Below, in pieces: positions 35,886-56,778 of a stretch of 64,000 nt of DNA. Both the position numbers and the translations under genes were made by a program. Each line of letters opens with the position of its first letter. Positions within the stretch are counted from its first letter, which is position 1. This DNA is from an uncultured Spirochaetota bacterium (GTDB taxonomy: Bacteria > Spirochaetota > Spirochaetia > SZUA-6 > Fen-1364): assembly GCA_963745235.1 (NCBI GenBank), contig CAVUXE010000075.1:30283-94282 (forward strand), in the 5' to 3' direction. The notes under the pieces are model-generated. The model was not told where the DNA came from. It saw only the letters and a list, made by a program, of their open reading frames with translations, and searched no databases.

Positions 35886-36341
35886 CTAACGGCGGCCCAG
35901 CTCCATGGACAGCTCCACCAGGTGATGGCATCTCTCATTCATCTGGTTGCCGGCGTGTCCTTCGACCCATGACCACGTGATGGGACGGCCCCTCGCAAGC
36001 TCCCACAGGGCCGACCAGAGGTCGATGTTCTTCACGGGCTTGTTGGCGCTGGTGCGCCATGAGTTTCGCTCCCAGGCGTGGATCCACTCAGTGATGCCTT
36101 TCTGCACGTACTGGGAATCCGTGGTGAGGGTCGTCAGCAGCGACTTCCATTCCGAATGAGCAGCAAGCTCCCGAAGGGCCTCGCGAACGGCCGTGAGCTC
36201 CATCCTGTTGTTCGTGGTCTGCGGATCGAACCCTGATCTTTCGATGGTCTGATCTCCCGCCTTCAGAACGAAGGCCCACCCTCCGGGACCGGGGTTGCCC
36301 TGGCAGCCGCCGTCCGTCCAGATTTCTATTGCCGGGCTCAA
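35886..36341 (-). CDS. rnhA: Ribonuclease HI
   Basis: WTDGGC.GNPGPGG, TTNNRMEL, TDSQY, WVEGHAG. Confidence 0.95.
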   Translation of the reverse strand: MSPAIEIWTDGGCQGNPGPGGWAFVLKAGDQTIERSGFDPQTTNNRMELTAVREALRELAAHSEWKSLLTTLTTDSQYVQKGITEWIHAWERNSWRTSANKPVKNIDLWSALWELARGRPITWSWVEGHAGNQMNERCHHLVELSMELGRR

Positions 36342-37364
36342 TCGTTTCCCTGCCTGCGGGCAACGAGCGGGCGGGGGGGAATCAAGCGAAAGATCTTCTT
36401 GCCCTCATACGTGCCGACGGGTACGCACAGGGCCTTGAGCTTCTGCGGGACGAGGTCCATGGCCTTCGCGGAGATGAAGAACTGCGCGGGGCGGGTGTAC
36501 TTCTTTCCGAGGTGGAACACCGAGTTCAGGCTGTCGGAAATGATCTCTCCCGTATCTCGGACACGGTACACGGTGGTCCCCGTGGACAGCGCAAGATGGA
36601 AGGAAATATGCCCGGGAAGGGGGGATTCCTCCACGTCGTAGAAGACCCGTGAGAGGAGAAGGCGCAGGCCGCATACGGGAGCGGAGCTGGCGCCGTTCTT
36701 CAGCGGGAAAAGCACAAGCCCGCCGAATTGAGACCACATCCACGTCCGGCCGCCGTGCTGGGAAGCCATCCTCTCCACGAAGGAACGGAAAGTCTCCATG
36801 GCGCCCGTGAGATTGTCCGGTTCATGCCGCTTCTTGAGCTCCTCCGAGCTGTCCACTTCGATGTAGAGGATGGCGAACGGATACTCCCTCCCGGGCACTA
36901 TCCGCTGCCACCCGTCCGCGGATGCCTCCGGGCCCGTTGGCCCTGGAGGTTCGGATGAAGCGGTCTCATCGACGTCCTGCTCCGCGGCATCTCCGTCCGC
37001 GTAGGTGAGAACCTGCGAGATCCGCTTCGCATTCAGCCGGCCCCCGGCCATCTTCCTGCCCAGGTAGTCCACCGCGCCGGCGTGGAAAAGCGAGGCGACA
37101 TCAGCCACCGTGCCCGCCGGATCCACCACCCCGAAAAGAAGTCCGGGATTTTCCGGGATGCAATGCAAGGATCTCCTGCCGCTCTGCCGGACCCAGCCCT
37201 GCCAGCTCCAGGTAGACGAGCGTGCCGCTCTGCAGAGTGGCTATCATTGCGGGGAGGTCCCTGATGGGATACGTCTCGACGGAAAGACCCTTGGTGACTC
37301 TCCCTTTTGCCGCTTTTTTCCTGCGGTTTTTCCCGAACAGCAGGATCCTCATTTCCGCGGCCAC
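36338..37364 (-). CDS. Degenerate receiver + class III nucleotide cyclase-like protein (frameshift near 37170)
   Basis: REC-like AGAVDYL; cyclase-fold pattern ILYIEV...HGGRTW.W...GGLVLF...LSTG...ISDSLNSVFHL. Confidence 0.55.
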
Positions 37365-38278
37365 TCCAGGGAATAGCGGTAGATGCTGCTGTTGTCCGGG
37401 CCGCTCACAGGAACGAACAGAGGTGCCAGCTTGCTGCCGAGGTCCGTGAACACACCGGGGGAGACCGTGAGGCTGTCAGGCTTCGTATAGCGCGACTCCA
37501 GCAGCTCGACCCTGCGGATGGTGTCCCCCTCAGACTCCTTGGCGGAGGCCAGGAACTTGCACGGACCCGCGTGGACCGCGAGTCGGGCGCTCACGGGCTC
37601 CGGCAAAGCGCTCCCCAGCAGGTTGAAGAGGAAGAGCTCGTGGACGATTTCCATGCCGCAGAGGGTTGCCTGGATGGTCTTGTCAATGAAGTAGAAGGCG
37701 GCAAGTGCCCCATCCCCCTCCCAGGTCCATATCCTGCCGTCCCGTTTTTCCACGAGCCGGGTGACGAGGTCCCGCACAGCCGTGTACGTGGAGTCGATGA
37801 GGCTTCGCGGATACCGGCGGACGAGGTCGGAGTTGCCCACGATGTCTATGCGAAGAAGGGCGAGCTCGTATGAACGTCCCTCCCGCAGGGTGCCCCACCC
37901 CATGGTCCGCGTGCGGCCGCCCCGCGCCTGCTCGACAAAGACCCCCTTCTCGGTGCTGTAGGCAAAGCCCTGCCCCTGGATCTCCGCGATGATCCGTGAC
38001 AGGAGCGGAATTCTGACCTCCCTCCCCATGTCCCCGTGCTGGTCGACTTCCAGGAGAGACTCGATGAGCTTCAGGAAGTAGTTCTCTTTGATGAAGTCCC
38101 GAAGGATTTGCTTCGCTGCGTCGACGCGCGGGATTTGAATGCTCTCGGGAAACCCTGAGCGCGCATAGATGTCGTAGTCCGGAATCACCTTGCGGGCCAC
38201 TTTCTCCATGAGATCCACTGTCATTGACTGGGAGAGCGCCTGGACAAAGAGGGTCGCCAGGCGGGTCTGGATCTTCAC
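37349..38278 (-). CDS. Class III adenylate/guanylate cyclase-like protein with N-terminal helical domain
   Basis: LRIDIVGNS and WEGDGALAAF metal-binding Asp motifs, RLAVHAG. Confidence 0.7.
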   Translation of the reverse strand: MKIQTRLATLFVQALSQSMTVDLMEKVARKVIPDYDIYARSGFPESIQIPRVDAAKQILRDFIKENYFLKLIESLLEVDQHGDMGREVRIPLLSRIIAEIQGQGFAYSTEKGVFVEQARGGRTRTMGWGTLREGRSYELALLRIDIVGNSDLVRRYPRSLIDSTYTAVRDLVTRLVEKRDGRIWTWEGDGALAAFYFIDKTIQATLCGMEIVHELFLFNLLGSALPEPVSARLAVHAGPCKFLASAKESEGDTIRRVELLESRYTKPDSLTVSPGVFTDLGSKLAPLFVPVSGPDNSSIYRYSLEWPRK

Positions 38279-38485: not shown

Positions 38486-38507
38486 CCCGTTCGTCGTTTT
38501 CAGTCAT

Positions 38508-38580
38508 GGCGGCGTAGCTCAGATGGTAGAGCATGCGGCTCATATCCGCAGTGTCAAGGGTTCGAGTCCCCTCGCCGCTA
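38508..38580 (+). tRNA. tRNA with CAT anticodon, probably elongator tRNA-Met (no encoded CCA)
   Basis: GGCGGCG/CGCCGCT acceptor stem, TAGCTCAG..GG D-arm, TGCGG-CTCATAT-CCGCA anticodon arm, GTTCGAGTC T-loop. Confidence 0.93.
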
Positions 38581-38613
38581 AGAGGCCCGCCCCGCGGCGA
38601 GGCCTTTCTTTTT
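38581..38613 (+). terminator. Rho-independent terminator after tRNA
   Basis: AGGCC...GGCCT hairpin followed by TTCTTTT. Confidence 0.6.
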
Positions 38614-39176: not shown

Positions 39177-40974
39177 TCACTGAGAGCGCAGACGCACTGT
39201 GAAGACGGTGCCGGACCCCGGCCTGCTCTCGAACTCTATGGTGCCTCCATGCTCATCGAGGATGTTGCGGCAAATGGAAAGGCCGAGCCCCGTGTTCGTT
39301 CGGCTGAGCTTTGTCGTGAAGAAAGGGTCGAAAACCCGGACACCCAGGTCTTCGGGGATCCCGCACCCGTCGTCCCTGAGGCGAACCTCCACCCAGCCGT
39401 CCGACACCTGACGCGCTTCAATCCCGATCCTGCCTCCGCTCAGCACCGCATCCACCGCGTTTGAGGCCAGGTTCAGCACCACCTGGGTGAGCCTGTTCGC
39501 GTCCCCCAGGACCGCGAGCGGCCCCGGGGGAAGGTCCAGGTCCACGGAGGCGGCCTTCTCCCGAAAGGCATGCTGCAGAAGAATGACCGCGTTCTCGATG
39601 ACCTCCCGTACGTCAACCACGCTCTTCGGCGCGCCGGCGACCCGAGAGAAGGAAAGGAGACTCGTAACGATCTCCGAGATGCGCGAAATTTCGCGTTCAA
39701 TACGCGTCAGCCGCTCCTCGATCTCAGGGTCCGCGACGCGTCCGCGAATGACCTCCAGGTAGTTCTGAATGGCAAACAGGGGGTTGTTCATCTCATGGGC
39801 CACGCCAACCGCCAGCTGGGCAACGGTGGATACCTTGGCGTTCTCCACCACGAAATCGTCCATATACCTGGCCAATGAGACATCCTCAATGACAAGGAGC
39901 GACCCGGCCCCGTCCAGTGACCGCACAGGAGCAGCGGCTATGGAAACGGTCTTGCCGGTGCGCAGCTTCAGCTCGGGCAGCCGCACCGGTTCACCGCTTG
40001 TGAAACTTCCGGCAACCTCTTCCCCCTTCTCCACCAGGGTCGAGAGGATCTCCGGGAAAGGTCGACCCACCTCGCCGCCGTCGAGGCTGCACAGCTCGTG
40101 GGCCGCAAGGTTGTAGAGCTGGATCCCATCCCGTTCGTCCAGAAGCACCACCCCCACGGGAAAGATCTGGATCACGTTCTGCAGGTCACGCTTGAGCCGC
40201 TGCAGGGGAGTATCGCTTCGAACCGTCTGCAGCTCGTCGAGGCTGAACGAATAGGTCAGCTCATGGAGACGAAACCTGTCCAGGCCCTTGGTCTCCATGG
40301 TGAGCCGACGGTGGCCGGCCCGCAGCACCGTGACCCTGTCGCGACAGCCGGAGAATCTCATCCATGTCGTGGCTGATGTAGATGATGCCGCAGCCCGCCT
40401 CCCGCAGGTCCAGGACTGTTCGATAGACGACCTTCATCTCGACCGGAGTGAGCTTGTTGGAAAGCTCATCCAGGATGAGCACCTTCGGACTGCGGGCAAG
40501 CGCGCGGGCAAGCTCCACCATGTGCTGGTGGGCCGGCTTCAACTTGGACAGGGGAACCCGCAGATCGAAGCGGCATTCCAGGGACAGGAGTATCTGAGAG
40601 GCCTGGCTTTCCATGGCGCGATGATCCAGGCGCCGAAGTCCACGGCGGATCATGCGGCCCGTGAAGATGTTCTCCACCGCATTCAGATGAGGAATGATGG
40701 ACAGGTCCTGGTAGACGATCCCGATCCCCTGCTCCAGCGAGCTCCTGGGTGTGAAGGTGTCCACCCTTCGGCCCTCGAAGAATATCGACCCGTCGCTTAC
40801 CGTGGCGGCGCCGCTCAGCACCTTGACCAGCGTGGATTTGCCCGCCCGATGTTCCCCGACCAGGGAGTGAATCTCCCCCGCGTACAGGTCGAAATCCACT
40901 CCGTCCAGGGCGGTCACGGTCCCGTAGGCCACATGGATATTGCGGAGCTCCAGGAGCTTGCCCTGGTCAGCCAT
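39177..40974 (-). CDS. Sugar-ABC ATPase domain - PAS-like - histidine kinase fusion (single frameshift near 40342)
   Basis: GEHRAGKST, IVYQ, ILDE, ISHDMDE then in next frame DRVTVLRAG...PVGVVLLD...AHEMNNP...NLASNA...DDGCG...FTTK...GLGL. Confidence 0.8.
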
Positions 40975-42289
40975 CCCCCGCTCCCATACCGAGCTTTTTC
41001 ATGCGGTTGTAGAGTGTCTTGCGGTCGATGTGGAGAATCCGGGCCGCTTCGCTCTTGGAGCCTCCCGCCCGGGTAATGGCTTCTTCGATGATCTGGCGCG
41101 CGGACGCGGCGAAGCGGTCAGACAGCTCAACGCCGGACCCTCCGTCGGCTCCGCGGTACTGCGGAGAGAGGTGAGACATCTGAATGGCGCCTCCCTCGCA
41201 GAAGATGACCGCCCGCTCGATGAGGTTCCGCAGCTCCCTCACGTTCCCCGGCCATCGGTGAGCCAGGAGCGTGGCGACGACCTCCCGGGAAAGCGAGAGG
41301 CCGGTCCGCCCGTATGCGCGCCCGTACTGGTTGAGGAAGTGCTCGGCAAGCGGGAGGATGTCACCGGGACGATCCCGCAGGGCGGGAATGCGGACCTCGA
41401 CGACGGCAAGGCGGTAGTAGAGCTCGTCCCGGAACCTCCCGCCGCGAATGGCCGCCTCGATGTCACGGTTGGTTGCCGCAACGACCCGGCAGTCGCTGTG
41501 GATGATGTCGACGCCGCCAAGCCGCGTGAAGCTTTTTTCCTGGAGGACGCGGAGCATCTTTGCCTGCGTGGAGAGGCTCATCTCCCCGATCTCATCCAGG
41601 AAGATCGTCCCGCCGTCAGCCACCTCCAGCAGCCCCGGCTTTCTCTCCCGCGCGTCGGTGAACGCCCCCCGCTCGTGGCCGAACATCTCGCTCTCCAGCA
41701 GAGTGTCCGGCATTGCGGCGCAATTGACCTCCACAAAGGAGCGGGTCCGCCGGCCGCTTGCCCTGTGGACCATCCGGGCGGCCAGCTCCTTGCCGGTTCC
41801 GGTCTCCCCGCGGATGAGGATGTGAGCGTCTGTCGGGGCAGCGCGCTCCAGGAGCGTGAGGGCCTCGCGCATGAGCGCGTCAACCGTCACGATGCCCTCG
41901 TCCTCGGGCATGTCCGCGCGCGGAGGTTTCTCCGCAAGAATGCGCTGGATCTGGGACAACAAGGCGGAGGACTTGATGGGCTTCGTAAAGACGTCCGCTG
42001 CTCCGTACTTCATGGCTGCGACGGCGGTGTCCACCGTCGCGAAGCCCGTGATGATCACCACCGGCAGATCCGGGAGCCGTGACTTGATGGACTGGAGGAG
42101 CTCGATGCCTCCTATGCCGGGCATGCGAAGATCCACGAGGGCGAGCGCCGTGGTCTTCGGGTTGATGGTGGACAGCGCGCTGACAGGATCCGTCACCACG
42201 ACGACGTCATACCCTTTGCCCAGGAGCAGGTCCGAGAGAGAGTCGCACACGGCCGGGTCGTCATCGACAATGAGTATCTGGTGTCTCAC
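40967..42289 (-). CDS. sigma54-dependent response regulator (NtrC family)
   Basis: ILIVDDD, LVDLRMP, GETGTGKE, GAFTDA, LDEIGE, WPGNVREL, HTH; stop overlaps start of fusion kinase. Confidence 0.93.
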   Translation of the reverse strand: MRHQILIVDDDPAVCDSLSDLLLGKGYDVVVVTDPVSALSTINPKTTALALVDLRMPGIGGIELLQSIKSRLPDLPVVIITGFATVDTAVAAMKYGAADVFTKPIKSSALLSQIQRILAEKPPRADMPEDEGIVTVDALMREALTLLERAAPTDAHILIRGETGTGKELAARMVHRASGRRTRSFVEVNCAAMPDTLLESEMFGHERGAFTDARERKPGLLEVADGGTIFLDEIGEMSLSTQAKMLRVLQEKSFTRLGGVDIIHSDCRVVAATNRDIEAAIRGGRFRDELYYRLAVVEVRIPALRDRPGDILPLAEHFLNQYGRAYGRTGLSLSREVVATLLAHRWPGNVRELRNLIERAVIFCEGGAIQMSHLSPQYRGADGGSGVELSDRFAASARQIIEEAITRAGGSKSEAARILHIDRKTLYNRMKKLGMGAGDG

Positions 42290-42327
42290 CTGTCCAGTAT
42301 AAACCATAGGTTTCGCTTCCGCAGGGA

Positions 42328-42426
42328 TGGGGAGAAGTCTCCCCAGGTGGGGCGGCCGAGGGGGAAAATGCGCCTCAGCGCGCGCAGCCGGCGCGCCGCG
42401 GATTCGAGCGGGGAGATCCTCCGCCA
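42328..42426. promoter_or_regulatory. Putative upstream activator sites for the sigma54 activator
   Basis: Perfect inverted repeat TGGGGAGA-AG-TCTCCCCA (42328-42345) plus two degenerate copies near 42360 and 42409. Confidence 0.55.
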
Positions 42427-42493
42427 CGCTGCAATTCCTTGCCGAGAAAGCAGATTTCGTGGACCGCTCCATGACTGTGAACCGTCGCGAGCT

Positions 42494-42509
42494 TGGCACA
42501 GTCCGTGCT
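42494..42509 (+). promoter_or_regulatory. sigma54 promoter of sugar ABC operon
   Basis: TGGCACAGTCCGTGCT: invariant GG and GC at correct spacing, one mismatch to consensus. Confidence 0.7.
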
Positions 42510-42579
42510 TCTTGTATGCGATTGCCCATGATACAATTGTCCGTCTCCCCGCAGCGAACCTTGAAAAACAGCCGAAAGG

Positions 42580-43602
42580 ATGGCAATCGTGGATAACATT
42601 CCCAGGGGCGCTCAGCCCGTCCCGGTCAACCCCGTGACGGCAGCCGCGCGTCGAGCGCTCGCCAATCGGGAGGTGGGAGTCTTTCTTGCCTTCCTGTTCC
42701 TCGTCATCGTGATGAGCTTTGCCAGCCAGTATTTCCTGAAGCCGCTGAACATCTTCAACGTCCTTCGCGGCATGTCGACCATCTCCATCATGTGCGTCGG
42801 GGTCACCATGGTCATCATCACGGGCGGGATAGACCTCTCTGTCGGGTCCCTTCTCGCCGTGACCGGGATGTTCACGGCTCGCCTGATGTACTCCGGGTTG
42901 TATCCGTGGCTCTGTGTCGCTCTTGGTTTCGCCCTCGGGCTCGGCCTCGGAATGCTCAACGGCTTCATCATCACGAAGGTGCGGGTGAACGCTTTCATCA
43001 CCACCCTCGGCATGATGAGCATTGGCCGCGGCCTCACCTACCTCATAGCCACCGGCGTGCAGGGCACGGTTGCTTCCAACATCCCCATGCGGGACCCCGC
43101 GGTGAACTTCATCGGGGACGGCTACCTTGGCGCGGTCCCCTTCCCGATCATCGAGATGCTGGTCCTGGTCGGTGTATTCACTTGGTTTCTCCGCAACACT
43201 GTTCTCGGCAGACAGATCTACGCCGTGGGTTCCAACGAGGAAGCGGCCCGGCTCTCGGGGGTGAACGTGAACCGCGTGAAGCTCTTCACGTACACGGCAA
43301 CAGGCGTTCTGTGCGCGCTGGCCGGCATCATGAGCGGCGGGCTCCTTGCCACCGCCGCGACGAACGCGGGAGAAGGCAACGAGCTGGACGTGATTGCAGC
43401 GGTTGTCATTGGCGGGGCGAGCCTCTCCGGTGGAGTCGGCACGATCATCGGGGCCATATTCGGCGCGGCCATCATGGCGATCCTGCGCAACGCCTTTGTT
43501 CTGCTCCATTTGCCGGCATTCCTGCAGACGGTGTCCATCGGGGTCGTGATCATTCTGGCCGTGGCCTCGGACAACCTGCGGCGGCGTCCCGGCCAGCTCT
43601 AG
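42580..43602 (+). CDS. Sugar ABC transporter permease (RbsC family)
   Basis: GGIDLSVG, FITTLG, GRQIYAVGSNEEAARLSG, ELDVIAAVVIGG. Confidence 0.93.
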   Translation: MAIVDNIPRGAQPVPVNPVTAAARRALANREVGVFLAFLFLVIVMSFASQYFLKPLNIFNVLRGMSTISIMCVGVTMVIITGGIDLSVGSLLAVTGMFTARLMYSGLYPWLCVALGFALGLGLGMLNGFIITKVRVNAFITTLGMMSIGRGLTYLIATGVQGTVASNIPMRDPAVNFIGDGYLGAVPFPIIEMLVLVGVFTWFLRNTVLGRQIYAVGSNEEAARLSGVNVNRVKLFTYTATGVLCALAGIMSGGLLATAATNAGEGNELDVIAAVVIGGASLSGGVGTIIGAIFGAAIMAILRNAFVLLHLPAFLQTVSIGVVIILAVASDNLRRRPGQL

Positions 43603-43690
43603 CGCGGTACCCCGCCTAGCGCGGTCGTATGGGCTTCAGGGCCGGACGTTGTCCGGCTTCGAGAAAAGTTTCGTGAGAAGGAGACAGAGC

Positions 43691-44731
43691 ATGAGCATGA
43701 CGCGAAAGGCCGTGATCCTCGTCTGCGCGCTGACCCTTGTCGGGCTGGCTGCGTGGGCGGGAGGGGCCCCGGAGAAAAAGCAATTGCCGCCGGGACCTGC
43801 TTTCGACAGCGCGACAACGGCAACCGATGAAGGGACCGTGAAGCCTGTGGCGCAGAAGTCCCCCAAGCCCATCAAGATTGCCGTCCTGGGTCTGGAGAAC
43901 AACCCGTTCTGGATCCCCGTGAAAGAGGGGACCATGAAGGCGGCTGAGGAGCTGGCGCCCCTGAACTGCAAGGTTGACTGGATCAACGCGGGAGCGCAGC
44001 ACACCACGGATGTTTTCAGCAAGGCGGTGGAGGCGGCAATGGCGGAAGGCTATGACGCCATCGCCACGGTGGCTGGAGATTCCGGCCTGGTTCCGTACAT
44101 CAACAAGGCAGTAGACGCCGGCATCCCCGTCGGCACTTTCAACTCTGAGACGGCCACGGCCAACAAGAGGCTCTTCTTCGTCGGAGCGGACCTCTACCAG
44201 CAGGGGCTCACCGCTGGCAAGAACATGGTCCAGGTCCTCGGCGGCAAGGGAAAAGTGGCGGTCATCACCGGCTTCTTCTCCGTGGAGGCGCACGAGCTTC
44301 GCCGCAAGGGCTTCGAAGATGAGGTGGCCAAGGAGGCCCCGGGAATCACCATCGTGGGCCGCGTGGAGAACAAGGACAAGGCGGACACGGCGTACAGCCA
44401 GGCGCAGGACTTCATGACAGCGAACCCCGACCTCAACGCGATCTACGTGACGGCGGGAGGCCCCTTCGGGGCGGCCAAGGCTGTCCAGGACGCGGGCAAG
44501 GCCGGCCAGGTCAAGATCATCTGCTATGACTTCGTCGATGAGACAATGCAGTTCGTCAAGTCCGGCGTGATCACCGGGACCCTCGGACAGGATCCGTTTG
44601 CCCAGGGCCATGATCCGGCTATCCGCCTGTACAACTACCTCGTCGGCGGGGTCATCCCCCCGGCGGGCAGGCTTCTCACTCGCGCAGACTTCGTCACCAA
44701 GGACAACATTTCCCAGTTCTACAAGCAGTAA
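43691..44731 (+). CDS. Sugar ABC transporter substrate-binding protein (RbsB family)
   Basis: Signal peptide ending WAGG, NPFW, RRKGF, QDPF.QG. Confidence 0.9.
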   Translation: MSMTRKAVILVCALTLVGLAAWAGGAPEKKQLPPGPAFDSATTATDEGTVKPVAQKSPKPIKIAVLGLENNPFWIPVKEGTMKAAEELAPLNCKVDWINAGAQHTTDVFSKAVEAAMAEGYDAIATVAGDSGLVPYINKAVDAGIPVGTFNSETATANKRLFFVGADLYQQGLTAGKNMVQVLGGKGKVAVITGFFSVEAHELRRKGFEDEVAKEAPGITIVGRVENKDKADTAYSQAQDFMTANPDLNAIYVTAGGPFGAAKAVQDAGKAGQVKIICYDFVDETMQFVKSGVITGTLGQDPFAQGHDPAIRLYNYLVGGVIPPAGRLLTRADFVTKDNISQFYKQ

Positions 44732-44743
44732 GGAACACATCCC

Positions 44744-44776
44744 GGAGGGCCGTCGGCGGATGCCGTCGGCCCCTCC
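44744..44776 (+). terminator. Intergenic GC-rich hairpin after binding-protein gene
   Basis: GGAGGGCCG.CGGC / GCCG.CGGCCCCTCC imperfect stem; no U-tract. Confidence 0.5.
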
Positions 44777-44798
44777 CCGGGATTGCAACGGGGGACGC

Positions 44799-46304
44799 AT
44801 GCAATCCAACGCAGACATGCCCATGCTGACCGTTCGGGACCTGGCCAGGAGCTTTGGTGGCCTGAAGGCCCTTGCCGGCGTCTCCCTGGAGGTGCGGCGG
44901 GGAGAAGTCCACGCAGTGGTCGGAGAAAACGGGGCCGGAAAATCCACCCTGATGAAAATCCTCGGAGGCATCATCCCCCGGGACGCGGGCCGCACGGAGC
45001 TCGAGGGGAAGGAAGTTTCCTTCGACTCCCCGCATGAGGCCATCTCTGCCGGAATTGCAGTGATCCACCAGGAGCTTTCCGTGCTGCCCACCATGAGCGT
45101 CATGGAAAATCTCTACATGGGCCGCATGCCAACCCGAAGCGGCAGGATCCGCTGGAAAGATATGGAGGAGCGCAGCCGCACCGCCCTTGCCGAAGTCGGC
45201 CTGGACATCGACCCCCGCACCCTCATGAGCAACCTGTCAATCTCGCACCGCCAGCTCGTCGAGATCGCCAAGGCCCTGTCCATCAATGCCCGGCTCATCA
45301 TCATGGATGAGCCGAACTCCTCCCTGAGTGAGACGGAAACGGAGCGGCTCTTTGCCGTCATCGACTCCCTCAAGAGCCGCGGCGTTTCCGTCATTTACGT
45401 GTCCCACAAGATCGACGAGGTGTTGAGGATCTCGGATCGCATCACCGTTCTTCGTGACGGCGCCCTGGTGGGCACGGTGGATCGCGCCGGGGCCACTGCC
45501 GGCGCGGTGATCAAGATGATGGTCGGCCGCGAGCTGACCCGGGAGTACGTTCCTCACGGGGAGTCCGGGCAGACCATCCTCAGCGTTCGAGGGCTCACGG
45601 GTGATGGCTTTTCGAACGTTTCCTTCGACCTGCGCAGGGGGGAGATCCTGTGCTTTGCCGGGCTGGTGGGAGCGGGGCGCAGCGAAGTATGGCGCACCAT
45701 TTTCGGCGCCCAGCGCCGGCATTCTGGAGAGGTGCTTCTGGACGGGCGAACCGTCTCCTTTGCCTCTCCCCATCATGCCATCGGCGCCGGCATGGCCATG
45801 GTCCCCGAGGACCGAAAGAAGCTCTCCCTGTTCATGGACCAGCCGGTGTGGTTCAACATGGCGCTGGCGGGGCTGCCGGCGATGAAGCGGGGGATTGCCA
45901 TTGACCGGGGGCGCATGGGGAAAATCGTCTGGGGCTTTGTGAGCAGCCTGGCAATCAAGCTGCGATCCACCGACGAGCCGGTGCGAAACCTTTCCGGAGG
46001 CAACCAGCAGAAGACCGTGCTCGCCCGCTGGCTCGCGCTGTCGCCCAAGGTGCTCATCCTGGATGAGCCCACCCACGGGGTGGATGTGGGCGCGAAATCC
46101 GAGGTGTACGAGCTGATCCGCCGGCTGGCGAGCTCCGGAATCGCCATTGCCCTGATCTCTTCCGAGCTTCCCGAGGTGATTGCCATGGCAGACCGTGTCG
46201 TGGTGATGCACGAAGGCCGCGTTACGGGGATCCTCGGCAGGGCCGACATCGACGAGCATCGGGTCATGGCGCACGCCACTGGCAGCGAGATGACCTCAGG
46301 CTGA
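44799..46304 (+). CDS. Sugar ABC transporter ATP-binding protein (RbsA/MglA, two NBDs)
   Basis: GENGAGKST, MDEP, SHK, LSGGNQQK, DEPTHGVDVGAK. Confidence 0.95.
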   Translation: MQSNADMPMLTVRDLARSFGGLKALAGVSLEVRRGEVHAVVGENGAGKSTLMKILGGIIPRDAGRTELEGKEVSFDSPHEAISAGIAVIHQELSVLPTMSVMENLYMGRMPTRSGRIRWKDMEERSRTALAEVGLDIDPRTLMSNLSISHRQLVEIAKALSINARLIIMDEPNSSLSETETERLFAVIDSLKSRGVSVIYVSHKIDEVLRISDRITVLRDGALVGTVDRAGATAGAVIKMMVGRELTREYVPHGESGQTILSVRGLTGDGFSNVSFDLRRGEILCFAGLVGAGRSEVWRTIFGAQRRHSGEVLLDGRTVSFASPHHAIGAGMAMVPEDRKKLSLFMDQPVWFNMALAGLPAMKRGIAIDRGRMGKIVWGFVSSLAIKLRSTDEPVRNLSGGNQQKTVLARWLALSPKVLILDEPTHGVDVGAKSEVYELIRRLASSGIAIALISSELPEVIAMADRVVVMHEGRVTGILGRADIDEHRVMAHATGSEMTSG

Positions 46305-46393
46305 TGACGCAAGGTGCCCGGGGGATGTAGGCGATTTCTCCACACGACAGTATAATGCCGCAACCCGCATTACTGCTGTTGGAGGGAGATCAC

Positions 46394-47206
46394 ATGCCGG
46401 AAGGTCCGAAGTATCACATCATGTTCCGTACCACGGAGGGCGTCCGCGGAGTGCCCCGTCCATTCGGGTTGGACATGCGAACGGTGATCAAGGTTTGCTT
46501 CCTGAGCCTGCATGAGGCGGTGAAACCGTTCCCTCACGCAATCCATGTGCTGGGGGACAGGCTTTCAGAGGACCTGAAGACCTTCTTCCAGCGCCTTGCG
46601 GATCGGGACGCGGCAGTCAAGATCCACCTGGAGGACTGCGACAGCGGCGAATCCATCCGGCAATCTCTTTCACTGGCGCTGGCAGTTCCTGACGGGGACT
46701 GGGTGTACTTCCTCGAAGACGATTATCTGCATCGACCGGAGGCATTTGTCTGGATCGATGAGCTGGTCAGAAACAAGGCGGAGGTGCTCCGCTTTGAACC
46801 GGGCCGCTGGTTCATGAAGCGCCTGTTCCGCAACGCCAACGAGGCACCGCTCATCATCCATCCGGCCGACTATCCCGACCGCTACCACCCGATCAAGCGC
46901 CAGTTCAGCCTGCTGTACATCACTCGTCTCAACCACTGGCGGCAGATCAGCAGCACGACGCACACCTTCATGGCGGAAGCCGGCACTATCCGTCGATACG
47001 AGAAAGTCATTCGTCGGTCCTCGAAACCCCCCCGGGACTTTTACCTCAGCCGTCACATGTACAGCCACATCTTCTTCCGGGGACGGGGCCTGTGCCTTTC
47101 CCCGATCCCGGGCGTGGCGACTCACATGACCGAAGGCGTGATGACCCCGCTGGTGGATTGGGAAAGCCTGCTTCGAGAGACGCTCGCAAAGGTCAAAGAG
47201 CTCTAA
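46394..47206 (+). CDS. Glycosyltransferase-like hypothetical protein (GT-A type)
   Basis: VYFLEDDYLH acidic motif, SPIPGVATH. Confidence 0.55.
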   Translation: MPEGPKYHIMFRTTEGVRGVPRPFGLDMRTVIKVCFLSLHEAVKPFPHAIHVLGDRLSEDLKTFFQRLADRDAAVKIHLEDCDSGESIRQSLSLALAVPDGDWVYFLEDDYLHRPEAFVWIDELVRNKAEVLRFEPGRWFMKRLFRNANEAPLIIHPADYPDRYHPIKRQFSLLYITRLNHWRQISSTTHTFMAEAGTIRRYEKVIRRSSKPPRDFYLSRHMYSHIFFRGRGLCLSPIPGVATHMTEGVMTPLVDWESLLRETLAKVKEL

Positions 47207-47221: not shown

Positions 47222-48085
47222 TCACGCCAGCGCCTCTTCCAGTGCCTTCCTCATGACGTCCTTGTTCGGCGTGAGCCCGGTCCACATGGTGATGTTCAAA
47301 GCTGCCTGGTTGATCAACATCTGCATGCCGCTCTGCCAGCGCAACCCCCGGCTGTCGGCCTCCCGCAGAAAGGGAGTGAACGCCGGGTTGGGGATGACAT
47401 CCTGGACATACACGTTCCTGCCGATCGTGTCATAGTCGATGTTCGGCTTGTCGTTGACGTTCGGGTAGAGGCCGATGGAGGTAGCGTTGACAAGGATGTC
47501 GGTCCTGGCCGGGACCTTGAACGTGTCCACCCAGGGAACATAGTCGACCTGGACATTGGCGTTCTTCGCGAGGGTCTTCACCAGCGCCTCACCCAAGGCT
47601 GCATCTTTGGGGATATTCACGATGGTCAGGTGCCGGGCGCCGGCCAGGGACAATTCCACGCAGATGGCCCGCGCGGCACCGCCGGCGCCAAGCACCACGA
47701 CATTCTTCCCCTTTGCTTCCACCCCCGCGCTTTCAAGGGCGATCATGAAGCCCTTGCCATCGGTATTCTCGCCGGTCAGGATCCCATTGTCGTTGATGAT
47801 GGTATTGACCGCGCCTATCTGTTGGGCGCTGGGCGACAGCTTATCGATGAATTTCAACACCTCGATCTTGTGTGGAATCGTGCAATTGATGCCCCGGAAC
47901 TTCATTGCCTTGAGGCCGAGTATCGCGTCGCCGAGCCTGCCTGGATCCACATCGATGGTCAGAAAATGCCAGTGCTGCAGCCCCAGGTCGCGAAACGCAG
48001 CTTCCTGGATGACCACGCCCGGGTTTTCGGCCGCAGGATGCCCGAACACGCCCACCAGGTTGTCCAGATAATTCTGCTCTTTCAT
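47222..48085 (-). CDS. Shikimate dehydrogenase-family oxidoreductase
   Basis: NCTIPHK, GAVNT, ENTDG, GAGGAARA, VNATSIG, MLINQA. Confidence 0.85.
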   Translation of the reverse strand: MKEQNYLDNLVGVFGHPAAENPGVVIQEAAFRDLGLQHWHFLTIDVDPGRLGDAILGLKAMKFRGINCTIPHKIEVLKFIDKLSPSAQQIGAVNTIINDNGILTGENTDGKGFMIALESAGVEAKGKNVVVLGAGGAARAICVELSLAGARHLTIVNIPKDAALGEALVKTLAKNANVQVDYVPWVDTFKVPARTDILVNATSIGLYPNVNDKPNIDYDTIGRNVYVQDVIPNPAFTPFLREADSRGLRWQSGMQMLINQAALNITMWTGLTPNKDVMRKALEEALA

Positions 48086-49917
48086 GCCTCACTCCAGTTG
48101 TTTGCGAAGTACACGGCGCCCACCGCCTGGGCGAACTGAGCGACGGTCAGCTCTGGATGCCGCTCCAACTGTTTCATGAGCGACGTGTTCGCCATGCCGG
48201 TCCCGGCCACGACCAGGGAAATGCCGGGATCGACGCTCCGCGCTCCCTCCACCAGCAAGTCGAAACAGGTCTGGTTCTTCACGAGGCGCCCGAACAGGAA
48301 CCGCTTGTCCGTGCCGGGCGCAAGGATGCGCCGCGTCTCGAGCAGCGTCACCGCCAGGGACTTGCCGATCTCACGCCAGATCTTGTAGTTGGTCTGGTCC
48401 CTCTCCCGGTCAGGGAGCCTCATCATGTGCTCCAGGAACGGCTTCCTCTGATCAACAGACCCGGTCGGGACATACCAGCCTTCCTGCGTGCCCTCCGCGC
48501 GCTGCTCGACATATCCCCTTTCAACCAGCTCATGGAACAGGTCGGGGCGTTCGGTGGGGAAGTACTTGAGGGCAAGGCGGAATATGCCGCTCTGGCTGCA
48601 GTACTTCTGCAGCGTCCCCGGCAGGCCCGTGTTGAAATTGTTGACGCTGCGCACGTCGTCGGCGCCATAGGCGCGCTCCGGCCAGCTGCCAAGGTCAATG
48701 ATGAAGTTGTAGACCTCCAGCGGGATGTCCGGGATGACCCCCGTCTCCGTCACCCAGCCGGTGCCGAGCTCCGTCCCGAGCGTATGGGCGAAGACCCCCT
48801 TGGCGACGTCGGCGGCGTCAAGCGAGGCGGCAATCTCCACCGCCGCGGTGAACGAGGCCATGGGCCCGTCGTTGATTATCCGGACCGCGCCGCCGGGCCG
48901 CACCCACGCCTGCAGGCGGATATCCAGGTCGGTGAGCTCAGCGAGATCCGATTCGTAGTCGATGGCAGGGTTGCTGCGGATACCGCGGGTCTTGTAGACC
49001 TCTCCTCCGACAATCTTGTTCTTCACCACGACATCCGGGAAACAGAGCCCGATTCCATCAAAGCGCGGCTCCTCATGGAGCCCCTCGGCCTCGAGGCTGG
49101 ACAGCACCTGAGACATCTCCGTGTCCCCCACGCCACCATGCAGGGCATGCGCCACGCGCCCAAGCAATTCCCGTCTCCGTCCGTCTCTCTCCGGCATGCG
49201 ATGAAGCCACAACCGGGCCTGGAGCAGCCGGACGATCAGGCAGATGGGATCAACCAATTGCCGCGAGCGCAGGAAGCCGGCTGGGAACCAGTCGTATTCC
49301 ACGCAATCGATCAGGCGGCCGTCATCCACAAGGACGGCCTTGATGTCGGTTCCCCCCACGTCAACGCCAAGGAGCGCCTTGTTCGAGAGGTGCTCCGTCC
49401 GACTCCTGAAAGAGTTGACGACATCCACTTGCGGATTTGGAGGCCGATGCTCCAGCGGCGCCTGCCCGAAATCGCCGAATCGGAAGGAAAATGCCGCGCC
49501 GGAGGGAATCATCACGTTGATCATACGCTCGATGACATTCACCGCCCGGCCGTAGCCGCAACGCGACGAACGCCTCATGCCGAGCCCGAAGACCGAGGGA
49601 AGCCTCCTGACCGCTTCGGCGAGTGAGGCCCGCGCGGGGTCGAAGTAGACCGTCATGAGCTTTCCGCCGAGAGCGGAGAGGATGTTGTAGATCTCCGCAT
49701 GGATGTAGCTTTCGACGAAGCCCCGTTCCGCGGCGCCCATGGCGTCGAGGCGAGGCACCCTCATGTCAAAGCGCCGGGATCCGGTTCCATCCAGGAGCTC
49801 CACGACGCAGGCCAAGCGCTCACTCGCTTCGTCCGCCAGGCTCCCGAACAGGGAGTGCAGGTCGGTGATGTAAACGCTTTGACCCGCCTTCGCTGCCTCC
49901 ATGAGCTCCCCGGTCAC
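48082..49917 (-). CDS. Large ROK/hexokinase-fold protein, copy 1 (putative sugar kinase)
   Basis: GVDVGGTDIK, IINDG, TLGTELGTG; ~180 aa N-terminal extension. Confidence 0.65.
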   Translation of the reverse strand: MTGELMEAAKAGQSVYITDLHSLFGSLADEASERLACVVELLDGTGSRRFDMRVPRLDAMGAAERGFVESYIHAEIYNILSALGGKLMTVYFDPARASLAEAVRRLPSVFGLGMRRSSRCGYGRAVNVIERMINVMIPSGAAFSFRFGDFGQAPLEHRPPNPQVDVVNSFRSRTEHLSNKALLGVDVGGTDIKAVLVDDGRLIDCVEYDWFPAGFLRSRQLVDPICLIVRLLQARLWLHRMPERDGRRRELLGRVAHALHGGVGDTEMSQVLSSLEAEGLHEEPRFDGIGLCFPDVVVKNKIVGGEVYKTRGIRSNPAIDYESDLAELTDLDIRLQAWVRPGGAVRIINDGPMASFTAAVEIAASLDAADVAKGVFAHTLGTELGTGWVTETGVIPDIPLEVYNFIIDLGSWPERAYGADDVRSVNNFNTGLPGTLQKYCSQSGIFRLALKYFPTERPDLFHELVERGYVEQRAEGTQEGWYVPTGSVDQRKPFLEHMMRLPDRERDQTNYKIWREIGKSLAVTLLETRRILAPGTDKRFLFGRLVKNQTCFDLLVEGARSVDPGISLVVAGTGMANTSLMKQLERHPELTVAQFAQAVGAVYFANNWSEA

Positions 49918-49918
49918 A

Positions 49919-50857
49919 CTACCTCCCGGCGGTGTTGGAGCGCTTGTGCTCCCTGACCACGGACAAACCCTCGGACTCCAGGATTTTCTGGAGCGCCGCG
50001 ATTTCGCTCTCCGACAAGGGCGCCATTCCGTCGAAGAACTCCGTGCTCCTGTTCATCAGCTCGTACTTGTTCATGGCAAGCGGATTGAAGTTCAGCAGCT
50101 CGACGCTTCCAGCAGCGTTTTCCTCCCCGATGAATCGCGCCAATGCCCCGATGTTCGATTCCGTCGCGGTTATCCGGGGTATCAGGGGAATCCGCGTCAG
50201 GAGCTGCACGCCACTGCGCGCCAGCCTGGCGTAGTTGCGCCAGATCTGCTCATTCGGGCTGTGGGTATATTCCCGGTGCAGCGCGCTGTCCGCCAGCTTG
50301 AGGTCGACAATGAACAGATCGGTCCAGGGGATGAATCGCTCGACAATCTCGTAGTCGCCGAAAAGGCAGGTCTCAATGGCCGTATGGACCTCCTCCTTCT
50401 TGCAGAGACCGAGCAGCTCGATGGCGAACTCATGCTGGACCAGGGGATCTCCGCCCGAAATGGTGATCCCGCCGCCGGACTGGCGATAAAACTCGACGTC
50501 TCGCAGCAGCGTTTCCGCGGCGGCCGCAGCGGAAATCATCTTCCCATCAAAGGACAGGGCTGTCGTCGGGCAGGCGGCCACGCAGGCGCCGCATGACGTG
50601 CAACTGGCCCTGTTGATCCGGACGAACGGATGGTTCTCCTCGTCATAGCGCAACGCGCCGTACGGACAGCTGGACGCGCACAAGCGGCACTGGATGCACT
50701 GCTTTTCCAGGTACCACAGGCTGATGCGGGCTTCCAATCCCTCCGGGTTCTGGCACCAGGCGCACCGAAGGCCGCAGCCCTTCAGGAAAAGGGTGGAGCG
50801 GATGCCGTATCCGTCGTGCAGGGTGAAACGCTTGATGTCGATGATGGCCCCGTCCAT
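49919..50857 (-). CDS. Glycyl-radical enzyme activase, copy 1
   Basis: [25 protein letters not shown], two CxxCxxCxxxC ferredoxin motifs, GGITISGG. Confidence 0.93.
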   Translation of the reverse strand: MDGAIIDIKRFTLHDGYGIRSTLFLKGCGLRCAWCQNPEGLEARISLWYLEKQCIQCRLCASSCPYGALRYDEENHPFVRINRASCTSCGACVAACPTTALSFDGKMISAAAAAETLLRDVEFYRQSGGGITISGGDPLVQHEFAIELLGLCKKEEVHTAIETCLFGDYEIVERFIPWTDLFIVDLKLADSALHREYTHSPNEQIWRNYARLARSGVQLLTRIPLIPRITATESNIGALARFIGEENAAGSVELLNFNPLAMNKYELMNRSTEFFDGMAPLSESEIAALQKILESEGLSVVREHKRSNTAGR

Positions 50858-53218: not shown

Positions 53219-54208
53219 TCACACAAACTCACGCCTGCGCTTCTGCGCGAAGCAGTCAAGCCAGATGATCGCTACAATGACCAGACCCTTCAACAGTACC
53301 TGGTAGTAGGACCGGATGGCGAGCATGTTCATGACATTATCGAGCATGCCGAACACGAGCAGGCCGAGGCCGGACTGCGGGATCCCTCCGATACCGCCCG
53401 CAAAGGAGGTTCCCCCGACAACGACGCCGCAGTTCACCACGAGCGCGGTCAGGTCCCCGTAGATGGATGAGCCCGTATTCAACTTGGAAGAGAGAAGCAT
53501 TCCCGCCAGGCCGGCGGCGCCCCCGCTGATCACGAAGGCGATCCACTTCGTTCGGATGACCGGGATGCCCGAGTAGCGCGCCACCTCGTAGTCCCCGCCG
53601 ATGGCGTACAGGTTGCGGCCGAACTGGGTGTAGCGCATGAGCCAGAAGGCCAGGGCGAAGCAGACCACCGTGATCATCACGAGGTTGGGCACCCCGTGGA
53701 AATCCCCGTTCCCGATCATCATGAAGGCGGGATTCTTGGCGGGCACCGGATGGGCGTCGGTGAGCTGCTGGGCCACGCCGGTGAGCAGCAGGCCCATGCC
53801 GAGGGTGATGATGAACGGCTCCGTCTTCTGGTGGACGGAGAGGAATCCGTTCACGAAGCCGACCACCACGCCGAAGATCACGGCGGCGGCGATGGCAAGC
53901 TCCATGGGCATCACGTCCTGGAGCTTGATGGACAGGATGCCAGAGACCACGAGGATCCCCCCGATGGAAAGGTCGCAGCCGCCCGCAATGATGGTGAGCG
54001 TGACCCCGAAGGAGAGGATGAGAAGGATCGACGTGGAGTTGAGCATGTCGAGGAGGTTGTAGGCGGTGTAGAAATGTCTGGGGGAGAAGAGCATCACGGC
54101 CAGCATCACGATGATGGCGACGAATGCCTTCTGCCTCATGACGAACGAGTATGCCCTCGCGCCGACTCCGTTTCCCGTCACCCTCACCCCGATTGCGTTG
54201 CCTGCCAT
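53219..54208 (-). CDS. Sugar ABC transporter permease
   Basis: GGCDLSIG, PFIITLG, FGRNLYAIGG...ARYSG. Confidence 0.9.
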   Translation of the reverse strand: MAGNAIGVRVTGNGVGARAYSFVMRQKAFVAIIVMLAVMLFSPRHFYTAYNLLDMLNSTSILLILSFGVTLTIIAGGCDLSIGGILVVSGILSIKLQDVMPMELAIAAAVIFGVVVGFVNGFLSVHQKTEPFIITLGMGLLLTGVAQQLTDAHPVPAKNPAFMMIGNGDFHGVPNLVMITVVCFALAFWLMRYTQFGRNLYAIGGDYEVARYSGIPVIRTKWIAFVISGGAAGLAGMLLSSKLNTGSSIYGDLTALVVNCGVVVGGTSFAGGIGGIPQSGLGLLVFGMLDNVMNMLAIRSYYQVLLKGLVIVAIIWLDCFAQKRRREFV

Positions 54209-54219
54209 GGCCGTACCTC

Positions 54220-55212
54220 CTACACCTGCTTGCGGTTGTCGAGCCAGATCGCGAGGATCAGGATTGCGCCCTTGGTGACCACCTGCAGGTAGGTCGAGAC
54301 ACCGAGAAGGTCCAGGCAATTGGACATGAGGATGACAAGGAGCACGCCCATCACGGTGCGCAGGACGCTGCCCTTGCCGCCTTTCAGCGTCGTGCCGCCG
54401 ACGACCACCGAAAGGATGGCGTTGGTTTCGTAGCCCGCGCCGATGACGGGCGCGGCCGTGGTGATCCGGGAGAACAGGACGATGGCCCCAACCCCCGTCA
54501 TCAGGCCGCAGACCACGTAGATCACGAAAATGCTCCGCAATATCCGGATGCCGCTGAGGCGCGCGGCCGTCTTGTTGCCTCCCGTGAGGCTGATGGCCCG
54601 CCCTTCCGTCGTTTTGGTCTGGAAGATCCAAAGGAGCAGCAGCACGACAAGGAAAATCACGAACGAGACCGAGAACGGGCCCACGCTTCCGGCGCCGATC
54701 GACTCGAACATCGACTTGCTCGTCTTGATGTCCCAGAAGTGCATCGTCATGCCCCCGCTGTACAGCAGGGCAAGGGCCGAAAACACGGTGCTCATGCCGA
54801 AGGTGAGGAACAGCGCTTCGGCCTGGGTGAGAGCGCCCGAGGTCAGGATGGCGGCGGCGTTGAGCGCCCCGCATGCGGCCCCGATTACCATGCCGGTGAG
54901 GAGAGCGGGTATCTGCCCCAACGGTCCGATCAGGGAGATGGTGACCACGGCGACGAGGTTTATGATGCCGGCCACCGAGAGGTCGATGAAGCCGCCGATG
55001 ATGACGAAGGTCATGCCGAGTGAGACCATCATGAGAGGCCCGAACTGGCGCATGATGTTGGTCAGGTTCCGCGGATTGAGGAACTTGGGCTCCACGATCG
55101 CCGTGATGGTGACCAGCGCCGCGATCATCACCAGGACCAGGTAGTCCCGGAAGAAGGCCTGCGCGGCCCTTGCCACCCGGTTTCGCCCCATGTGCATCGC
55201 AATTTCTGCCAT
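54220..55212 (-). CDS. Sugar ABC transporter permease
   Basis: GFIDLSV, GGNKTAARLSG, YETNAILSVVVGG. Confidence 0.9.
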   Translation of the reverse strand: MAEIAMHMGRNRVARAAQAFFRDYLVLVMIAALVTITAIVEPKFLNPRNLTNIMRQFGPLMMVSLGMTFVIIGGFIDLSVAGIINLVAVVTISLIGPLGQIPALLTGMVIGAACGALNAAAILTSGALTQAEALFLTFGMSTVFSALALLYSGGMTMHFWDIKTSKSMFESIGAGSVGPFSVSFVIFLVVLLLLWIFQTKTTEGRAISLTGGNKTAARLSGIRILRSIFVIYVVCGLMTGVGAIVLFSRITTAAPVIGAGYETNAILSVVVGGTTLKGGKGSVLRTVMGVLLVILMSNCLDLLGVSTYLQVVTKGAILILAIWLDNRKQV

Positions 55213-55214
55213 GG

Positions 55215-56720: not shown

Positions 56721-56745
56721 ATCCTTGAATGAAGGTTACAGGAAC

Positions 56746-56778
56746 AAGGCTCGTCCCGCCAGAGGCGGAACGAACCTT
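56746..56778 (-). terminator. Intergenic hairpin after binding-protein gene
   Basis: Minus strand AAGGTTCGTTCCGCC-TCT-GGCGGGACGAGCCTT stem with G-U pairs. Confidence 0.6.

Follow-up and report, generated by a model that had tools for sequence, protein, structure and literature searches.

Within a 64,000-nucleotide stretch of DNA from an uncultured Spirochaetota bacterium of soil (contig CAVUXE010000075.1 of GenBank assembly GCA_963745235.1, positions 30,283 to 94,282; this whole stretch is called the window below, and positions are counted from its first letter), we identified a gene for a soluble histidine kinase that carries, as its N-terminal domain, a nucleotide-binding domain (NBD) of the type found in the ATP-binding cassette (ABC) importers of sugars. 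The gene (39177..40974, minus strand) encodes 598 residues in the order NBD, PAS, HisKA and HATPase_c, and it is read as two open reading frames (ORFs) in the window on account of one surplus base. This architecture is on record in databases but uncharacterised. Our reading, to which we give about an even chance, is that the kinase and the NtrC-type response regulator encoded beside it form a two-component system that would induce the adjoining sugar importer, using a transporter motor domain as its sensor input.

A soluble histidine kinase with a transporter-type NBD

The upstream ORF (40261..40974, minus strand, 237 aa) consists of one ABC NBD (Pfam ABC_tran, E 4.5e-24), and the downstream ORF (39177..40361, minus strand, 394 aa) matches PAS_10 (E 1.7e-05), HisKA (2.4e-12) and HATPase_c (1.2e-28); the kinase has these four Pfam families and no others. 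The initial annotation of this DNA, made by a model from the letters and a list of ORFs, had described just such a single CUT2-type NBD and a second ORF with PAS, HisKA and HATPase segments, and the Pfam matches, together with NCBIfam matches of the NBD to the N-terminal halves of CUT2 ATPases, bear this out. It had also joined the two ORFs into one protein of about 600 aa that lacks transmembrane helices, which agrees with a 598-aa database protein (P0002) and with the hydropathy of the kinase: its maximal Kyte-Doolittle mean over 19 residues is 1.22, compared with 2.31 in the adjoining permease. The same maximum stays below 1.6 in 101 of the 107 family members that we aligned, indicating that the family is soluble.

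The NBD, of the CUT2 N-terminal type according to Pfam ABC_tran, NCBIfam, motifs and trees, covers residues 1-241 (40251..40974, minus strand). It is followed by a linker (residues 243-254) and a PAS domain (about residues 256-364), both encoded at 39879..40250 on the same strand, and then by the kinase core with its stop codon (39177..39878, minus strand), made of the DHp/HisKA domain with the H-box AHEMNNPL (His393) and of HATPase_c. A392, H393 and E394 of the H-box are invariant in the 107 aligned sequences, as are N501, N505, D534, G536, G538, G562 and G564 of HATPase_c, and the N, G1 and G2 boxes of a GHKL catalytic domain are all present. The PAS domain is the least conserved part of the protein in this alignment. 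For the PAS-HisKA-HATPase_c part, the best NCBIfam match is AtoS, below its cut-off, and the closest solved chain is ThkA (3a0r).

An AlphaFold2 (AF2) model built on the 107-sequence alignment (mean pLDDT 79.8, pTM 0.45) shows an NBD with block-mean pLDDT values that are mostly 84-96 and that drop to 73-79 in three blocks (73 for residues 231-240), a linker of low confidence (243-254), a PAS fold (256-364), a pair of long DHp helices (366-412 and 416-443) and then the catalytic domain. Foldseek likens the NBD to LptB, a Thermotoga LivF-like protein and MalK, and places the kinase half near LOV-kinase chimeras and ThkA.

The kinase gene is intact

The surplus base that splits the gene is the c or the g of a tcgcgac stretch (40341..40342, minus strand). 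The upstream frame ends ISHDMDEILRLS and then turns into nonsense, and the second frame picks up at DRVTVLRAG, which is the normal end of an ABC domain; the two frames meet at ILRLS and DRVTVLRAG, within 40340-40343, and deleting either 40341 or 40342 restores Ser-Asp at this junction. Contigs from four other sequencing runs, belonging to four studies, all lack the surplus base (40341 is missing in X1, X3 and X5, and 40342 in X2), and over 39800-40900 they are otherwise identical to the window, save two letters in X3 near the end of its contig. This comparison used one contig per run, at depths of 3.3-4.75, and one of the runs is possibly the source sample. P0002 is also identical to the window's gene read through, except at the junction (ILRLSDRVTVLRAGH); the query of our homolog search was a read-through of the break (P0001) with about ten wrong residues at that place, and P0002 was used afterwards.

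Other genes are broken as well in the paralogous loci of the same genome, which lie on contigs C28 (L116:5631-7225; locus labels are ours), C9 (L117:2509-4129) and C35 (L118:7397-9016): the CUT2 ATPase genes on C28 and C9 and the NtrC-type regulator gene on C35 each appear as two overlapping ORFs or as two tblastn pieces. Considering these similar breaks, the assembly to which the window belongs seems prone to single-base indel errors. The homologs point the same way: ABC_tran (PF00005), HisKA (PF00512) and HATPase_c (PF02518) are found together in about 600 aa in 116 of the 120 best listed homologs, the remaining four being 450-501 aa long and lying on contigs of 2.4-18.9 kb, and the kinase is fused in all 22 further copies whose neighbourhoods we compared, two of which have a frame break of their own. 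The initial annotation had itself named separately encoded homologs as the outcome that would speak against its proposal; the homologs are fused.

The kinase gene is to be treated as intact, and the surplus base is an error or a minority variant of this assembly: the extra base that had been noticed near 40342 is present in the window, but it is not biological. The window as given, with its surplus base and two overlapping ORFs, would suit a real split into separate NBD and PAS-kinase proteins, a decaying pseudogene or programmed frameshifting, which we consider extremely improbable in the face of the four runs, the intact database protein, the other indel errors and the fused homologs, a programmed frameshift or a pseudogene being rejected in view of the four runs.

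The NBD is related to the N-terminal half of CUT2 ATPases

CUT2 ATPases such as RbsA, MglA, AraG, XylG and YtfR have two NBDs, here called N1 (N-terminal) and N2, which provide one consensus site, composed of the N1 catalytic residues and the N2 signature, and one degenerate site. The best NCBIfam matches of residues 1-250 of the kinase are the N-terminal halves of YtfR, RbsA, AraG, AlsA and XylG (E 1e-53 to 1e-55, each below the family cut-off), and the kinase NBD aligns with N1 without large gaps, its whole helical subdomain being kept. It shares Walker A, Walker B, the H-loop and a degenerate signature with N1. In N1, N2 and the kinase NBD, respectively, Walker A reads GENGAGKST, GSGRTE and GEHRAGKS, the Q-loop IYQ, VPEDR and VYQ, the signature LSVxQQQ, LSGGNQQK and LxxxxQ, the Walker B region DEPTSAL, DEPTRGID and LDExLxKLTP, and the H-loop ISH, ISS and I(S/T)H. 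The motifs of the window's own protein are GEHRAGKS (Walker A), VYQ (Q-loop), LKPAHQH (signature), LILDE (Walker B), SNKLTP (an altered D-loop) and ISH (H-loop). Compared with CUT2 ATPases, the kinase NBD thus replaces GENGAGKS by GEHRAGKS and DEPTSAL by DE-L-x-KLTP, continues into PAS and the kinase core, and has no second NBD beside it, hence no LSGGQ partner in cis.

These changes are shared by the family rather than peculiar to one gene. Among the 107 members, whose identity goes down to 25%, G40, G45, K46, Q89 and D169 never vary, E170, H202 and the family-specific H42-R43-A44 are each kept by at least 90%, and GEHRAGKS, ILDE..KLTP and the H-loop show little or no variation. Such conservation argues that selection acts on the NBD for nucleotide handling and that the domain is not in decay. 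The LSGGQ signature is lost (LKPAHQH in the window, LxxxxQ as family consensus), and a degenerate signature is typical of CUT2 N1 domains too (LSISHRQ in the window's own ATPase), LSGGNQQK being found in N2 only. The initial annotation was right that the NBD deviates from the canonical motifs, but the deviation is family-wide and the signature loss is partly ancestral. Judging from the motifs, the kinase NBD appears to keep every catalytic feature of N1, a homodimer of it would offer no signature partner, and we predict that it binds ATP and hydrolyses it poorly.

Phylogenetic trees of 20 kinase NBDs with 18 N1 and 15 N2 domains of neighbouring ATPases, with the root placed on N2, unite the kinase NBDs in a single clade (support 95), which falls on the N1 side of the split between N1 and N2 (support 99-100). 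FastTree and a quick IQ-TREE search agree on this, neither being an exhaustive search, and the terminal branches of the kinase NBDs are similar in length to those of the transporter N1 domains. Altogether, these sequence comparisons indicate an origin of the kinase NBD in the N-terminal NBD of CUT2 (ribose-type) ATPases.

The kinase is encoded with an NtrC-type regulator beside a CUT2 transporter operon

Directly upstream of the kinase gene lies a gene for an NtrC-type response regulator (40967..42307, minus strand; 446 aa from the ATG at 42307), with REC, sigma-54 AAA+ and HTH_8 domains (Pfam Response_reg 9.9e-26, Sigma54_activat 3.8e-66, HTH_8 9.3e-11). The end of this gene and the start of the kinase gene, from its ATG, share 8 nt (40967-40974), so that the pairing with an NtrC-type activator proposed earlier holds. 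On the other side, and divergent from this pair, are the genes of a transporter operon: a CUT2 (RbsC-type) permease of 340 aa (42580..43602, plus strand; Pfam BPD_transp_2 1.3e-43), a periplasmic sugar-binding protein (43649..44731, plus strand, with a likely start at 43691; Pfam Peripla_BP_4 5.1e-55) and a two-NBD CUT2 ATPase of about 501 aa (44799..46304, plus strand; Pfam ABC_tran in two stretches). The ATPase has GENGAGKST and LSISHRQ in N1, and GAGRSE and LSGGNQQK in N2. NCBIfam matches of these proteins all stay below cut-offs: ribose permease is the best for the permease, RhaS, AlsB, rhizopine and RbsB models match the binding protein far below theirs, and AraG, XylG and RbsA match the ATPase with E values down to 4.8e-165.

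Facing the permease gene is a sigma-54-type -24/-12 element, TGGCACAGTCCGTGCT (42494..42509, plus strand, by pattern match), which ends 70 nt upstream of the permease ATG and is the sole such match in the window. The match alone is within chance, since at least one was found in 21 of 100 shuffles of the window, and the promoter call rests instead on its position and on its recurrence at other loci. Of the 21 other loci searched, 12 contain the strict pattern, at 13 places in all, and 12 of these places (in 11 loci) precede the earliest possible start codon of the leading transporter-operon gene by 5-142 nt. An rpoN gene is present in the window's genome (Sigma54_DBD match 3.6e-56). The divergent operon of permease, binding protein and complete ATPase behind a sigma-54-type promoter, as it had been described at the outset, is thus what Pfam and TGGCACAGTCCGTGCT support.

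The sigma-54 contact loop of the window's regulator reads GAFTDA; across the 23 cognate regulators that we compared, the loop is GAFTDA in 8, GAFTNA in 2, GAFTGA in 5, GAYTGA in 4 and GSYTGA in 4. GAFTDA and GAFTNA are found only in partners of the kinase-NBD subfamily to which the window's protein belongs (GAFTGA occurs there three times), and in partners of the second subfamily the loop is GAFTGA, GAYTGA or GSYTGA. Strict -24/-12 elements are nonetheless present at loci with GAFTDA.

The same arrangement was found in the copies that we compared: the one in the window, three paralogs in the same genome, 12 loci of 10 other genomes and six loci from a scan of contigs, one of which has two systems, giving 23 copies. 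In all 23, the gene immediately upstream of the kinase gene is that of the NtrC-type regulator. Twenty-two have a CUT2 permease gene nearby (L009 stops at a contig edge), and 21 have a two-NBD ATPase gene, L104 having a single-NBD ATPase and L009 being cut by the contig end. Genes in the gaps encode Peripla_BP_4 binding proteins and enzymes of sugar or polyol catabolism, namely aldehyde dehydrogenase, Zn-dependent dehydrogenase, shikimate/quinate dehydrogenase, GatZ/KbaZ and PfkB. When 10 ORFs in the inter-gene gaps of 14 loci were analysed with Pfam, no stand-alone N2-like partner gene was found among them, only binding proteins, dehydrogenases, GatZ/KbaZ and one ORF that matched no family.

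With overlapping genes and this constant pairing, the kinase would be expected to autophosphorylate and to transfer the phosphoryl group to its partner regulator, and the phosphorylated regulator would then switch on the sigma-54 promoter of the operon for permease, binding protein and ATPase. This wiring, which runs from the kinase through the regulator and the sigma-54 promoter to the transporter operon, draws on established two-component and sigma-54 biology as well as on the conserved gene order, and we consider it highly probable.

Two of the compared loci deserve a description of their own. In L104 (L104:3432-8784), the single-NBD ATPase (265 aa) has an intact LSGGQ and is followed by GatZ/KbaZ-like and PfkB genes, as in a tagatose-type pathway. 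In L014 (L014:4962-11812), from a Spirochaetota metagenome-assembled genome (MAG), two complete pairs of NBD-kinase and regulator genes are arranged back to back and divergently, each with a CUT2 operon and a sigma-54-type element (at 4770 and 15626) of its own.

Convergent to the window's transporter operon is a shikimate/quinate dehydrogenase-like gene (47222-48085, minus strand), a homolog of which is the first gene behind the sigma-54 element at another locus (L110:12285-13238); these two occurrences hint that some of the systems handle quinate-like, shikimate-like or cyclitol substrates. About 600 nt past the stop codon of the kinase gene is a tRNA-Met gene (anticodon CAT; 38507-38581, plus strand). 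Four flanking ORFs matched no Pfam family at the thresholds used: 36338-37168 (minus strand, 276 aa), 37349-38278 (minus, 309 aa), 46355-47206 (plus, 283 aa) and 48082-49917 (minus, 611 aa). Elsewhere in the window are genes for a radical-SAM/4Fe-4S protein (49919-51406, minus strand), a second CUT2 transporter (53219-57818, minus strand), made up of two permease ORFs, a Peripla_BP_4 ORF and a two-NBD ATPase, and a glycyl radical enzyme resembling pyruvate formate-lyase (58935-60905, plus strand).

The fused kinases form a large family

In a search against representatives clustered at 50% identity, 110 of the best 150 matches were single-stretch matches, about 105 of them to proteins of 550-642 aa covering both NBD and kinase. 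The 40 two-stretch matches were three fused kinases (checked with Pfam), 34 ordinary CUT2 ATPases of about 500 aa and three fusions of ATPase and permease. The latter three (P0328, P0343 and P0345; 829-859 aa) are natural single chains that join a two-NBD CUT2 ATPase to a BPD_transp_2 permease. The architecture is not rare, being carried by clearly more than 100 clusters at 50% identity.

The window's genome has three further intact copies, with 43, 42 and 30% identity, and each of its four paralogs lies beside its own transporter. A full-length match (E <=1e-60) was found in 10 of 300 other genomes sampled from the phylum, which may be an undercount, at most four candidates having been scored per genome. 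Named carriers are Sphaerochaeta, Spirochaetaceae, Treponema-labelled genomes, Spirochaetota MAGs and one MAG of candidate division KSB3. In this last genome (L013), a full-length NBD-kinase is accompanied by a regulator and a CUT2 operon, through gene transfer or through a problem of binning or labelling. The contig scan used two peptide patterns that are generic for the kinase class, and six of the 80 loci kept (L009-L014) are full-length fusions; L044 and L054, which came from the same scan, are not NBD-kinase fusions.

The cluster of the window's protein in the ESM Atlas has 62 members, from Spirochaetota. The same resource gave two leads outside the phylum (score 0.85), which are Actinomycetota clusters of 64 and 166 members with proteins of 826 and 852 aa and the combinations ABC_tran+HisKA+HATPase_c and ABC_tran+HisKA+GAF_2, respectively; these may represent a second, independent fusion of an NBD to a kinase.

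Existing automatic labels call such proteins 'AtoS', 'histidine kinase/ABC-type ... ATPase' or 'ATP-binding cassette domain-containing protein', and no NCBIfam model spans the fusion. No description of a kinase fused to an ABC NBD was found in the full-text literature, PMC1183210 included, a search that mostly did not reach subscription journals and opened no supplements; the statement in the initial annotation that it knew of no characterised example stands within this literature.

How the NBD may inform the kinase

In the mechanism that we propose, the kinase dimer would seat its two NBDs on the coupling helices of the permease dimer, replacing the ATPase; this is the least certain step. A loaded binding protein would then dock and the ATP-charged NBDs would close, and this closure would be relayed through the linker and the PAS domain as far as the DHp helices, turning the kinase on. 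Since a dimer that lacks LSGGQ would hydrolyse ATP poorly, the docked complex would act as a receptor rather than as a pump. Docking of the NBD on the permease, which structure prediction supports weakly, is in our estimate close to, or a little short of, an even chance. The fuller picture is more tentative. A sub-population of CUT2 permease dimers might have a kinase dimer in the place of the ATPase, forming a non-pumping ABC 'receptor', a possibility that we rate somewhat below even. It is conceivable, with about the same reserve, that this receptor consists of a binding protein, two permeases and two kinases, and that its alternating-access movement is read out as histidine phosphorylation. 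The loss of LSGGQ could, no more firmly, make the NBD an ATP-loaded conformational switch with slow turnover.

A predicted complex of two copies of the permease (residues 28-338) with the NBD (residues 1-240) scored 0.52, compared with 0.00 for the best of three controls, which lends weak support to docking; contacts agreed to at least 91% among the three runs, with a partner pLDDT of at least 77. In the calibration of this score, 58 of 80 solved complexes and 2 of 110 mismatched pairs attained the mark, and passing scores of 0.60 or less came from 7 of the 80 solved complexes and from both passing mismatched pairs; the job itself used its own alignments and three chains, unlike the calibration set. 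No solved relative of the CUT2 permease was found by sequence at E <=0.001. The initial proposal was that the kinase would dock on the permease through its own NBD and so report transport; the complex prediction lends weak support to the docking.

Several observations weigh against a docked receptor. Each adjoining transporter has an ATPase of its own (two-NBD in 21 of the 23 copies, single-NBD in one, and cut by the contig in one), so that the kinase NBD is unneeded as a motor and would compete for the permease; at no locus is it the sole motor, and the gene content does not call for docking. By the calibration, a pass in the band of 0.52 would more often be wrong than right unless docking were already likely, and likeness to solved NBD-permease complexes of other ABC families may explain the score. 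The low-confidence linker between NBD and PAS (243-254) leaves no rigid signal path visible in the AF2 model, and a variable PAS domain would also fit paralog-specific cytoplasmic ligands, the permease being unneeded. The window's genome has dozens of CUT2 systems, which would demand specificity of docking. Kinase NBDs are 31.2% identical to the N1 domain of their own transporter and 30.1% to those of other loci (permutation p 0.017, the loci being related), and 20.7% and 21.0% identical to their own and to other N2 domains (p 0.75); we rejected the likeness of cognate NBDs as evidence of docking, the difference being too small and confounded by the relatedness of the loci. Finally, the family is known from sequence and predicted structures alone.

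Some of these observations fit a kinase that works off the membrane, with a PAS domain that binds the imported sugar or a metabolite and an NBD that serves as a cytoplasmic nucleotide sensor or as an ATP-driven dimerisation clamp. This we consider unlikely, if a serious alternative, and the same holds for its corollary that the NBD gates the kinase by energy state, the importer being induced only when both substrate and ATP are present. Kept ATP-binding residues with a lost signature suit binding without turnover, the PAS domain varies between paralogs as a pocket for different substrates would, the linker is flexible in the model, and all adjoining transporters own an ATPase. KdpD is a precedent for a P-loop nucleotide-binding input on a kinase. 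An off-membrane kinase leaves unexplained why the input is always an NBD of the CUT2 N1 type with its whole helical subdomain and why CUT2 operons are the family's sole setting (23 of 23 copies), and the permease complex prediction (0.52 against 0.00) gives weak support to the contrary. Considering that each of the four paralogs in the window's genome has its own transporter, each needs a substrate-specific input, for which ATP sensing alone is insufficient. Such an input might be gained by docking of the NBD on the cognate permease, or by a cytoplasmic ligand of the variable PAS domain, the NBD then serving as a nucleotide-dependent clamp.

Contact with the transporter could also be made through its ATPase, the kinase NBD pairing with the N2 half or competing with the ATPase and displacing it, and thereby mainly tuning transport or reading how far the ATPase occupies the permease, instead of reading the docking of the binding protein. 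The kinase NBD does keep the N1 catalytic residues and lacks a signature, LSGGNQQK could come only from a neighbouring N2, and the kinase gene and the transporter always co-occur. We consider this improbable, since N1 and N2 are on one polypeptide in 21 of 23 loci, leaving little room for pairing in trans, and no stand-alone N2-like gene was found in the gaps analysed, which contain binding proteins and catabolic enzymes.

Comparison with known transporter-linked kinases

Sensing through transporters is a recognised theme, represented by Bce systems, PhoU-PhoR, DctA-DcuS and kinases fused to SLC5 transporters, where a membrane kinase, an adaptor or an entire fused transporter makes the contact; the particularity here is that the kinase owns a copy of an ABC motor domain. 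In PstSCAB-PhoU-PhoR, separate proteins let a kinase read the state or flux of a transporter, instead of free ligand, and control the expression of that transporter. BceAB-BceS, PhoU-PhoR and DctA-DcuS have in common a kinase that is in the membrane or acts through an adaptor and that has no ABC domain. According to two reports, the kinases of BceRSAB and DctA-DcuS read the state or flux of a transporter rather than free ligand and control expression of that transporter (PMC3023708, PMC5703999). The NBD-kinase differs from these co-sensing systems in that the putative contact surface is the kinase's own NBD, its contact with the permease being predicted only.

The closest parallel by fusion is found in the SLC5/STAC kinases CbrA, CrbS and RpuS, in which, as two papers describe them, a solute-transporter module is fused to a histidine kinase that controls the uptake or use of carbon sources (PMC9100948, PMC5715377). 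There, a whole membrane symporter is fused through a STAC domain, whereas the NBD-kinase has a soluble ABC ATPase domain, no transmembrane helix and a separate membrane part. Pfam and hydropathy show no SLC5 symporter and no STAC domain N-terminal to the kinase in the window's protein.

Kinases of the NtrB and AtoS type (AtoS-AtoC, ZraS-ZraR), which are soluble or contain a PAS domain, likewise have an NtrC-type partner, and none of them has an ABC NBD. A Spirochaetota MAG (L054:6695-14274) provides a further comparison, in which genes for a binding protein, two permeases and a single-NBD ATPase precede those for a HAMP-PAS-HisKA kinase and an NtrC-type regulator: its regulatory logic is like that of the NBD-kinase loci, but the kinase has HAMP and lacks an NBD, and the CUT2-like operon has a separate single-NBD ATPase. 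An ABC motor domain as kinase input occurs in none of the systems compared, so the input appears to be new.

The fused NBD suggests, in simple structural terms, a way in which conformational cycling in the membrane could be passed on to a soluble kinase. The family is large and tightly bound to a single class of transporters, and it has apparently never been studied; hundreds of spirochaete genes from soil, peat, sediment and gut would gain an annotation from a single study. If docking is true, ABC importers would join the 'transceptors', and this would be the first importer with a signalling enzyme in the motor position; if the complex is read out as a receptor, it would be a natural template for transporter-coupled biosensors. 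If docking is false, an ABC NBD would have been co-opted as a soluble input domain that depends on nucleotide, likewise a novelty among histidine kinases.

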